From: a virus
Lineage: Duplodnaviria > Heunggongvirae > Uroviricota > Caudoviricetes
DNA: 6,043 nt
IMG/VR virus record: IMGVR_UViG_2737471819_000031
Span: 1 to 6,043 of that record
Direction: 5' to 3' (one strand)
A model generated the notes under the pieces. It was not told the DNA's origin. It ran no database searches and saw only the letters and a program-made list of their open reading frames with translations. Positions 1 through 1,365 of the stretch are shown one piece after another. The translations under genes were made by a program, and so were the position numbers. Numbering within the stretch: position 1 is the first letter of the stretch; each line of letters starts with the position of its first letter.

Positions 1-201
1 ATGACTACGACTATTGATAAAAATCAATGGTGTGGACAATTCAAGCGATGCAATGGATGCAAGCTGCAATCGGAATGCATGGTTAAGCCTGAAGAAATGT
101 TTCCTGTAATGGAAGATGGGAAATATGTCGATAAATGGGCAATACGAACGACGGCAATGATTGCCAGAGAACTTGGTAAACAGAACTACAAGGCTGCCTG
201 A
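1..201 (+). CDS. ral: Ral-like restriction-alleviation protein (66 aa)
   Basis: Complete 201-nt ORF starting at window position 1. The protein (MTTTIDKNQWCGQFKRCNGCKLQSEC...) matches my recollection of phage lambda Ral in sequence and length, has four Cys in the N-terminal third, and lies upstream of a cIII-like gene as in lambda. Identity is from memory and not verified. Confidence 0.55.
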   Translation: MTTTIDKNQWCGQFKRCNGCKLQSECMVKPEEMFPVMEDGKYVDKWAIRTTAMIARELGKQNYKAA

Positions 202-259: not shown

Positions 260-709
260 ATGGAAGAACAAGCAAACAAGATTCTCGTAGAACTACTGCA
301 AAAAGCCAGCAATGGAATAGATGCTGCTGTTTCATTTAGCCAAGCACAGATTCCTGATGTTGTTCATCAGTTGCTGCTATGGAATATGGTTGACAGTCTG
401 ATTAAAACATTAATAGCCATTCTAACAATCCCACTGGTTTTCTGGTTTATGAAGAAGCAGTGCCAAAGAGTTGAGACAGGTAAAATCGGTGATGAAGGAT
501 ACTCATGGGAGAGGGGAAATCCCAAATACAGGCCGACAATGGTTTGGGATAGCAAAGGAGATGTTAACCTTCTTATCATGCCATTGGTTGGAGTTTTGAC
601 TCTGTGGGGGATTTTTATTATTGGTGTAGTAACCAATATGACTTGGTTAAAAATTTGGCTGGCCCCAAAACTTTACCTTATCGAATATGCAGCATCATTG
701 GTTAAGTAA
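260..709 (+). CDS. Small two-TM inner-membrane protein of unknown function (149 aa)
   Basis: ORF with SD-like AAGGTG 4-5 nt upstream of the ATG. Two strongly hydrophobic segments (LIKTLIAILTIPLVFWFM and LLIMPLVGVLTLWGIFIIGVVT) flank a charged ~40-aa loop. Terminators lie on both sides. Confidence 0.6.
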   Translation: MEEQANKILVELLQKASNGIDAAVSFSQAQIPDVVHQLLLWNMVDSLIKTLIAILTIPLVFWFMKKQCQRVETGKIGDEGYSWERGNPKYRPTMVWDSKGDVNLLIMPLVGVLTLWGIFIIGVVTNMTWLKIWLAPKLYLIEYAASLVK

Positions 710-713
710 TTTC

Positions 714-740
714 AGGCCGCATAGTCGGCCTTTATTTTTG
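714..740 (+). terminator. Intrinsic terminator
   Basis: Perfect 6-bp stem AGGCCG / CGGCCT with 6-nt loop, followed by TTATTTTTGG, 5 nt after the stop of ORF 260..709. Confidence 0.65.
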
Positions 741-768
741 GCATAAACAACAGAATAAATACTGCACT

Positions 769-796
769 GTGTATTCATTCCAACGAGTGAATACAC
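769..796 (+). repeat. Perfect 9-bp inverted repeat (GTGTATTCA-N10-TGAATACAC)
   Basis: Arms are exact reverse complements with a 10-nt spacer, in the non-coding stretch between the membrane-protein terminator and the cIII-like gene. Could be a protein-binding site or RNA hairpin; function unknown. Confidence 0.45.
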
Positions 797-858
797 GGAG
801 CAATGTCGCTCGTAACTAAACAGGAGCCGACTTGTTCTGATTATTGGAAATCTTCTTT

Positions 859-884
859 GCCCTCCAGTGTGAGGGCCTTTTTAT
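859..884 (+). terminator. Intrinsic terminator
   Basis: 6-bp stem GCCCTC / GAGGGC with 6-nt loop followed by CTTTTTATAT; only the + strand gives a U-tract. Confidence 0.5.
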
Positions 885-948
885 ATGCATACCAATAATG
901 CTTCACCAGAGGCATTTTCGTTATGCAATCAAACAGAAGGAGCATCCT

Positions 949-1119
949 ATGCAACAGTTCGCTATTGCAGGGGCGGCATCGGTTCGCCCTTTCAACCCGA
1001 TTTTATCGGTACAGCATTCACGAAAAAACATTTTAACCGGAGCAGACTTTAAACAACCAAGAATGAAAAGTTTGCTCGAAAAGCTTTGGGATATTTTGAA
1101 ACAACAAGGCCGTCCATGA
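949..1119 (+). CDS. cIII: CIII-like protein (56 aa; FtsH-inhibitor family in lambda)
   Basis: Strong SD AAGGAG 6 nt upstream of ATG 949. N-terminus MQQFAIAG resembles lambda CIII MQYAIAG as I recall it; C-terminal SLLEKLWDILKQQG resembles the CIII amphipathic region; size and position fit. The longer six-frame ORF from 844 lacks an SD and spans the terminator at 859..884. Confidence 0.5.
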   Translation: MQQFAIAGAASVRPFNPILSVQHSRKNILTGADFKQPRMKSLLEKLWDILKQQGRP

Positions 1120-1286
1120 GTTTTACAGATAACTGGTCAGACGAAGAATTCATTCGTCAGATGAAAGAATTAATCGGTAGCGAAGGAGATATTCATGTCA
1201 CTTGCAACCACAGTGAAGGAGAGCAAGTTACAGAGACGCATGTACACGCAGCAGGCGTTAATGTATCGCCAGAAGGGAGATCGTGA
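1116..1286 (+). CDS. Hypothetical small acidic protein (56 aa) at the kil position
   Basis: ATG 1116 overlaps the cIII-like stop as ATGA (translational coupling) with a weak AAGG SD 6 nt upstream. Sequence not recognised; 'kil position' is by synteny only. Confidence 0.35.
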   Translation: MSFTDNWSDEEFIRQMKELIGSEGDIHVTCNHSEGEQVTETHVHAAGVNVSPEGRS

Positions 1287-1365
1287 AGGTGTTCGCGTAT
1301 TTTTAAATGCGGCAAAGACTGAAGTATTAAATCAGCGTTATTTACTTGGGTCATGTCCATTCTGA
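1240..1365 (+). CDS. Hypothetical small protein (41 aa, or 34 aa from ATG 1261) just upstream of erf
   Basis: ORF below the six-frame track threshold (MYTQQALMYRQKGDREGVRVFLNAAKTEVLNQRYLLGSCPF). It fills the otherwise non-coding 1287..1375 gap and ends 10 nt before the erf start. It overlaps ORF 1116..1286 in another frame and the SD is weak, so one of the two may be spurious. Confidence 0.3.
   Translation: MYTQQALMYRQKGDREGVRVFLNAAKTEVLNQRYLLGSCPF

Follow-up and report, generated by a model that had tools for sequence, protein, structure and literature searches.

The window, a stretch of 6,043 nucleotides of phage DNA, is the early-left (pL) operon of a lambdoid phage or prophage, written in the direction of transcription. 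An earlier note on this sequence had drawn attention to a long non-coding spacer before cIII that contains an inverted repeat and a terminator. The observation was correct, and the element is an already known one: the spacer carries the gene of the small RNA PreS (LPR1) with terminator tL2a, followed by the cIII leader with tL2b. We are confident that the interval is the ral-to-cIII segment of the pL operon with PreS and tL2a, and that the hairpin at the 5' end of the sRNA is most likely the signal for a cut that would free PreS from its transcript. The structural conservation of this hairpin and the modular shuffling of hairpins and seeds go beyond the PreS literature that we found.

PreS and its surroundings

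The features of the region are listed in Table 1. A Pfam search with the membrane-protein gene gave no match, and at the position of the first of the two small ORFs behind cIII (1116-1286) the HK022 record annotates Kil. Further downstream, an erf-type recombinase, Ea-type genes and xis are encoded on the + strand. The membrane-protein gene appears to be a moron that was inserted between ral and the PreS module, and a 14-nt direct repeat, GGCCTTTATTTTTG, flanks it on both sides (204-217 and 727-740). Either copy of this repeat comprises the T-run and the 3' half of an intrinsic terminator. The ral terminator of lambda and HK140 continues directly into GCATAAATAACAG.

Table 1. Features of the spacer and of the neighboring genes, in window positions
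Feature	Position	Strand	Detail or basis
ral	1-201	+	Pfam PF11058, E = 9e-48
Membrane-protein gene, 149 aa, function unknown	260-709		phrog_3054
Spacer, 239 nt	710-948		between membrane-protein ORF end (709) and cIII ATG (949)
Terminator closing the membrane-protein gene	714-741	+	stem AGGCCG/CGGCCT, then TTTATTTTTGG; scan, fold
A/C-rich, G-poor linker GCATAAACAACAGAATAAATAC	742-762	+	alignment with lambda, HK140, mEpX1
Upstream hairpin	763-802	+	17 pairs, conserved A-A mismatch 766/799, loop CAAC
PreS (LPR1) homolog	798-883	+	primers, probe, alignment, lambda coordinates
PreS seed core TGTTCTGATTATTGGAAA	833-850	+	exact match to the 18 nt deleted in the lpr1 seed mutant
tL2a terminator, PreS 3' stem-loop and U-tail (Hfq-binding module)	859-884	+	scan, fold, published 3' end
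cIII leader hairpin	886-927	+	core stem 897-904/909-916, then TTTTCGTT; scan, fold, alignment
Shine-Dalgarno GGAG and ATG of HK022-type cIII	939-942, 949-951	+	sequence, ORF list, phrog_550
HK022-type cIII	949-1119	+	PHROG phrog_550 "CIII", E = 1e-22
Two small ORFs	1116-1286, 1195-1365		phrog_2123, phrog_1723

The estimate of about 240 nt of non-coding DNA before cIII proved accurate (239 nt). The spacer had also been called unusually long, on the grounds that lambda has only a short gap at this junction, and this did not hold. Lambda has a 182-nt gap between ral and ea10 and a 72-nt gap between ea10 and cIII, with the same sequence. The first of these gaps corresponds to window positions 721-886 with 96.4% identity, the lambda match adjoining ral, and the second aligns with 887-948. 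According to these alignments, the "long spacer" is the two intergenic regions of lambda joined together, with ea10 absent, and this ea10-less arrangement is common to HK140, HK620 and many other phages. A BLAST search against phage genomes found the interval in about 380 records, lambda included, mostly with 95-99% identity, and positions 776-874 are identical in lambda, HK140, mEpX1 and HK022. The linker in front of the hairpin is shared with the region just downstream of lambda ral; in other phages it is replaced, and many of them still keep a ..GAATAA motif right before the hairpin.

The ral-ea10 region of lambda encodes an Hfq-dependent sRNA that was named LPR1 and later renamed PreS (Silverman et al., bioRxiv 10.1101/2024.10.31.621285). 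An RNA of about 88 nt and a stronger processed form of about 68 nt were detected, the RNA was enriched with Hfq, and its 3' end was found to be terminator tL2a (bioRxiv 10.1101/2024.10.31.621285). PreS is made in the lytic cycle only; lysogens lack it, and it becomes visible within 10 min after induction (bioRxiv 10.1101/2024.10.31.621285). In lambda, the gene lies at 34011-33924, between ral and ea10. By its sequence, the segment 798-883 of the window is a copy of this known sRNA. From 798 to 876 the sequence is that of lambda, and all differences lie in the tail past the terminator stem, where the window has CTTTTTA and lambda has GATTTTTTA, giving lengths of 86 and 88 nt, respectively. The published +1 cloning primer (Table S5) matches exactly at 798-817, the northern probe has an exact minus-strand match at 825-858, and the 3' primer aligns at 861-885 with three mismatches, all of them in the U-tail. 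Because these published oligonucleotides map there, 859-884 can be identified with tL2a and thus with the PreS 3' end, and a 31-codon ORF at 803-898 on the + strand comes to lie inside the sRNA. LPR1 was regarded as conserved when it showed at least 92% identity to lambda with at most three gaps (bioRxiv 10.1101/2024.10.31.621285), and the window copy is within these limits. It also has the location of PreS, in the pL operon, downstream of ral and on the transcribed strand, with the 450-nt moron interposed, and it ends in a GC-rich stem-loop with a U-tail of the tL2a type. The suggestion that the spacer might form a regulatory RNA structure was therefore right in kind and undersold the interval, which is a complete sRNA gene that has been characterized experimentally as PreS/LPR1.

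Window and lambda PreS agree in sequence, seed, tL2a, place downstream of ral and complementarity to the dnaN leader. Apart from the U-tail and the length, they differ in that a membrane-protein moron separates ral from the sRNA in the window, and in that ea10 is lacking there, so that the sRNA is located directly upstream of an HK022-type cIII. The prophage sRNAs AgvB/AsxR, the Pas sRNAs and HnrS were considered as well and rejected; all of them are encoded in the late or PR' region and are unrelated. An Rfam search with the window and eight related loci gave no family over the spacer, and Lambda_thermo was matched only in phages with a lambda-type cIII. Our literature search on tL2a and RNase III processing near ral, whose scope did not extend to the older lambda papers, yielded the PreS preprint alone, and the lambda record J02459 carries no tL2a or processing-site feature.

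A scan of 1.5 kb for terminators, with shuffled sequences as control, gave five sites, as compared to 1.0 +/- 1.1 in the shuffles. Three terminator-like hairpins lie within 240 nt (714-741, 859-884 and 897-924), each consisting of a G+C-rich hairpin and a T-run. The intrinsic terminator that had been proposed at 859-884 was recovered (stem 859-876, then CTTTTTAT); its stem, 859-864/871-876, has five G-C pairs and is followed by CUUUUUAU. The other two are absent from the earlier note. One of them (714-731, with a T-run to 741) stands right behind the membrane-protein gene. A comparison of 181-230 with 701-750 showed that GGCCTTTATTTTTG, the 3' half of this terminator, is a repeat of the ral terminator at 204-217; in mEpX1 the terminator behind the membrane-protein gene is present behind a different gene. 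The other one (897-916), the cIII leader hairpin, is homologous to the ea10-cIII intergenic region of lambda. The GenBank record of HK620 labels the hairpins homologous to 859-884 and to the cIII leader hairpin tL2A and tL2B, respectively.

A cluster of lambda terminators, tL2a-d, was reportedly described by Luk and Szybalski in Virology in 1983. The hairpin at 859-884 corresponds to tL2a and that at 897-924 to tL2b; in lambda ea10 stands between the two, whereas in the window they are 13 nt apart. Termination at tL2a and at the tL2b-like hairpin that follows would keep cIII and kil dependent on N antitermination. A further terminator-like hairpin at 1282-1307 (CGTGAAGGTGTTCGCG followed by TATTTTTAAA) was noted inside the ORF 1195-1365, and it may be the counterpart of tL2C/tL2D, which are annotated inside kil and hkaM of HK620.

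Two observations concern cIII itself. An Rfam search of the window at E <= 1 gave no match, including none to Lambda_thermo (RF01804), the cIII thermoregulator, a model that scores 84-88 bits in lambda, HK620, S135 and Oslo, all with a lambda-type cIII. The start region of the HK022-type cIII (936-1000) is thus without a Lambda_thermo match, while lambda-type cIII genes behind the same conserved leader do match. In the GenBank record of mEpX1, a 276-nt "putative cIII" (1631-1906; window equivalent 844-1119) starts from a TTG inside PreS and runs through tL2a, and the record marks a terminator within this same CDS. The "putative cIII" is probably an over-extended gene call.

Pairing with the dnaN leader

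In lambda, PreS activates the translation of dnaN by opening its ribosome-binding site, which was confirmed with compensatory mutants, and it represses alaS (bioRxiv 10.1101/2024.10.31.621285). An 11-nt target motif is complementary to the unpaired seed, and deletion of the seed or of the full sRNA lowers the phage yield 2- to 4-fold in an Hfq-dependent manner (bioRxiv 10.1101/2024.10.31.621285). Judging from the identity of sequence and context, this function is presumably carried over from lambda to the window. The seed at 833-850 would then pair with the dnaA 3' end and the dnaN leader and activate translation of the beta sliding clamp, and dnaN activation and alaS repression together would support phage DNA replication. 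The predicted duplex of the window PreS with the E. coli dnaN leader has an energy of -40.9 kcal/mol; 500 shuffles averaged -21.2 +/- 4.0 kcal/mol, and none of them was as good. Seed pairing was also computed with the leaders of 11 enterobacterial species.

The seed sequence is 100% conserved, and diverged variants keep the complementarity to dnaN. P22-like phages of Salmonella (epsilon34, S135, S149, SEN22 and Oslo) have a diverged "type 2" PreS whose sequence contains a 13-nt insertion and whose terminator is different. This variant keeps the core GUUCUG(G)UUAA, and the second half of its seed, UCGAAAAAUC, is perfectly complementary to GAUUUUUCGA, the Salmonella-specific version of the dnaA 3' end. 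Where Salmonella has a G in this sequence, E. coli has an A, and the lambda-type seed fits the E. coli version. The type-2 seed forms a predicted duplex of -27.6 kcal/mol with the Salmonella sequence, as compared to -23.3 kcal/mol with that of E. coli. This suggests that PreS seeds track the dnaA-dnaN junction of the host (E. coli versus Salmonella), and such tracking would speak, on independent evolutionary grounds, for dnaN as the target that is conserved.

In the predicted 87-nt fold, the PreS 5' end GAGCAA pairs with UUGUUC of the seed (798-811 and 832-837), and in type-2 variants the stem next to this pairing has a compensatory change from A-U to G-C. The processed form of about 68 nt would start near 816, in the single-stranded, AU-rich UAACUAAAC. 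Because this form would lack the 5' segment that pairs with the seed, trimming of the 5' end may unmask and thereby activate the seed.

The hairpin at the PreS 5' end

The inverted repeat described in the earlier note, GTGTATTCA-N10-TGAATACAC at 769-777/788-796, is indeed a perfect 9-bp repeat and the sole one in the window, yet as a bare repeat it is weakly significant, since 12.7% of mononucleotide shuffles contain at least one. The repeat extends to arms at 763-780/785-802, with 17 pairs, one A-A mismatch and a 4-nt loop, and the resulting hairpin folds with -22.8 kcal/mol (z = -8.3 against shuffles). Its 3' arm overlaps positions +1 to +5 of PreS (the +1 being taken from the published cloning primers), so that G798, G800 and C801 are part of the stem base.

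Alignment with related loci, which had been proposed as a check, was carried out with 120 more loci retrieved from IMG/VR by a 19-nt PreS pattern; 131 occurrences were analyzed in all. A hairpin is found at the PreS 5' end in 130 of these, the exception being HK022. There are four unrelated sequence versions with one shared stem structure, which we designate type A (lambda and the window), B (Oslo type), C (epsilon34 type) and D (SEN22 type). They share the stem base alone, GCAC...GnGAGC with the conserved A-A mismatch, and their arms align without gaps. Standard pairs occupy 91.5% of the alignment cells, as against 25-51% for slid controls. Changes on both sides of a pair are seen in 8 of the 17 pairs, and the covariation amounts to 0.551, compared to 0.157 in shuffles (none of 500 as high), although these counts overstate the number of independent events, as the four types represent perhaps three replacements. 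Owing to recurrent G-U pairs, the + strand of each type folds more stably than the - strand, and in all four a constant 12-13 nt separates the loop from the +1.

Hairpins and sRNA bodies occur in the type combinations A1, A2, A3, B1, B2, B3, C2 and D2, and a hairpin is always kept. In other phages, BLAST breakpoints mark both ends of the module formed by hairpin and sRNA (window positions 764 and 882/886), and similarity to the Salmonella types begins exactly at 798. The extended stem and the covariation indicate that the palindrome is more than a chance repeat: it is a strand-specific RNA hairpin of which the structure is conserved and the sequence is not. Hairpin and sRNA behave as a two-part module, with selection acting on the first part through its RNA structure, which excludes a DNA operator and speaks against a mere scar of recombination. 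The proposal of a mosaic junction was half right: breakpoints do cluster at the borders, but the module between them is itself conserved and is no scar.

In HK022 (1521-2444, about 2470), an IS903 located immediately upstream has removed the 5' arm of the hairpin and left PreS and tL2a intact. The hairpin could be dispensable, or the HK022 copy could be defective.

Our scan found no sigma-70-like site in the spacer, in line with the earlier note, which had seen no convincing sigma70 promoter. As there is no promoter-like sequence and the RNA, missing in lysogens, arises within 10 min after induction, PreS would have to be cut from the pL transcript. The hairpin would most likely mark the place at which an endonuclease cuts this polycistronic, N-antiterminated transcript to set free the 5' end of PreS; the ral/moron mRNA upstream would then end in a hairpin as well. 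The 3' end of PreS would be set by termination or trimming at tL2a and by the binding of Hfq. If UAACUAAAC were cut too, near 816, the short form would arise, and the seed portion that is paired with the PreS 5' end would become free.

RNase III is the leading candidate for the cut at the 5' end, because a stable stem, a conserved mismatch next to the cut and a fixed distance from loop to cut suit a double-strand-specific endonuclease. RNase III processing hairpins are known from phage transcripts such as T7 R1.1 and the lambda N-leader and sib sites. The hairpin resembles these as a stable stem-loop in a polycistronic transcript with a mismatch next to the presumed cut, and the downstream RNA starts at the base of the 3' arm. 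The assignment is weak in view of the dimensions of the candidate site: 13 pairs lie above the presumed cut and no more than 3-4 positions below it (C767 pairs with G798, and A766-A799 is the mismatch), and the whole stem has 17-18 bp, whereas RNase III normally covers about 22 bp (PMC6212723). We consider the chances of RNase III being the enzyme to be roughly balanced, and those of the hairpin determining PreS 5'-end formation by whatever enzyme would appear somewhat better. Tentatively, and with slightly more doubt than conviction, we propose a wider picture in which the hairpin is a swappable biogenesis module that guides an endonuclease, most likely RNase III, in which hairpin and seed cassettes recombine independently in lambdoid and P22-like phages, and in which the seeds track the host. 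The PreS preprint mentions neither the hairpin, which is present in lambda as well, nor a promoter, RNase III or 5'-end mapping, and it gives no account of cassette recombination, host-tracking of the seed or a role of the hairpin in biogenesis (bioRxiv 10.1101/2024.10.31.621285).

Several other explanations were weighed against a hairpin that serves to release PreS. The hairpin might act as RNA for a different purpose; it could stabilize the 3' end of the ral/moron message, serve as a sib-type entry site for decay or insulate the fold of the sRNA. In several Salmonella phages, it begins right behind the stop codon of the upstream gene (..GAATAA), and the stem is short for a canonical RNase III site. 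In the lambda-type linker, CAGAAUAA can moreover pair with the seed in a predicted 220-nt fold, which an insulating hairpin might prevent. However, the hairpin travels with PreS, with breakpoints at 764, while upstream genes and linkers differ, and its 3' arm overlaps the +1 in the same register in all four types. The pairing between linker and seed is not general either, and as a general feature this long-range pairing was rejected, being absent in loci with other linkers or seed types. We therefore regard a role apart from PreS as unlikely, though it is the most serious of the competing explanations.

If the interval were a terminator cluster and nothing else, tL2a and tL2b would make cIII and kil N-dependent, the RNA would be a mere by-product with no activity, and the palindrome would have come about by chance through mosaic recombination. 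The three terminator-like hairpins within 240 nt, where 1.0 is expected in the whole 1.5 kb scanned, the annotation of tL2A and tL2B in HK620 and the mosaic breakpoints flanking the module all fit this description. An inert RNA is nevertheless hard to reconcile with the published deletions, which cut the yield 2- to 4-fold in an Hfq-dependent manner, with the compensatory mutations that confirm dnaN regulation, and with a fully conserved seed whose diverged variants keep the dnaN complementarity; nor would an accidental hairpin keep its structure through complete replacement of its sequence. We thus consider it very improbable that the cluster is all there is.

Similarly low is the probability that PreS has a promoter of its own, hidden in the hairpin DNA as -35/-10 elements. 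The authors of the preprint do treat G798 as +1 and express the sRNA from that base. But besides the negative scan of the spacer, the -10 and -35 positions would fall into stem segments that differ completely between types A-D, and absence from lysogens with appearance within 10 min of induction is what is expected of a pL product.

The earlier note had also considered a protein-binding operator, and a perfect 9-bp inverted repeat with a 10-bp spacer does have the classic shape of a site for a dimeric phage or host regulator. Yet four unrelated sequences with the same stem geometry occupy this place, with no conserved half-site that is symmetric on both strands. G-U pairs work in the + strand RNA only, as a G-T pair becomes an A-C mismatch on the other strand, and the + strand fold is the more stable one in every type. 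In addition, contiguous arms of 17-18 bp around a 4-nt loop look more like a hairpin than like a pair of half-sites, and the palindrome is about 2 kb or more away from the immunity region, so that an operator is hardly credible. Least of all do we believe in a small protein encoded by the 31-codon ORF (803-898), rightly called poorly supported before: it has an open frame and an ATG with a nearby GGAG, and hypothetical proteins are annotated across the stretch in some GenBank records, but the GGAG is only 2 nt from the ATG, the ORF runs through tL2a, there is no Pfam or PHROG match, and in the type-2 variants of Salmonella phages the ATG is changed to ATA and the 13-nt insertion breaks the frame, so that we judge it not to be a gene.

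Related systems, prevalence and annotation

A similar arrangement is that of DicF, an sRNA of the dicB operon of the Qin prophage that was reportedly described by Faubladier, Cam and Bouche in 1990. Like PreS, DicF is an sRNA embedded in an early operon of a prophage, directly in front of a gene for cell division or host killing, and it ends at an intrinsic terminator; DicF is freed from a polycistronic transcript by RNase E and RNase III. The two are not related in sequence or by Rfam (no DicF match in the window at E <= 1), and they differ in their targets, ftsZ for DicF and dnaN for PreS, which activates its main target. VpdS of vibriophage VP882 and other Hfq-dependent phage sRNAs (reviewed in PMC12197685) are similar to PreS in that an sRNA of a temperate phage retunes host mRNAs in the lytic cycle; in sequence, host and targets they are unrelated to it.

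The segment 763-884 was found in 2,237 of 5,426 complete E. coli genomes (41%), with up to six copies per genome, and the hairpin-plus-PreS module occurs at 20 plasmid locations in these genomes. No annotated feature lies under the module in the eight RefSeq matches listed from complete E. coli genomes, and Rfam 15 has no model for PreS. Several records of Salmonella phages place hypothetical proteins across PreS.

What seems to be an unannotated gap of 240 nt is a characterized phage regulator of host DNA replication. With PreS annotated, prophage annotation would gain in quality, and strains in which induced prophages can raise DnaN would be recognizable. The 5' hairpin, conserved in structure, offers a testable handle on the question of how an sRNA within an antiterminated operon acquires defined ends.
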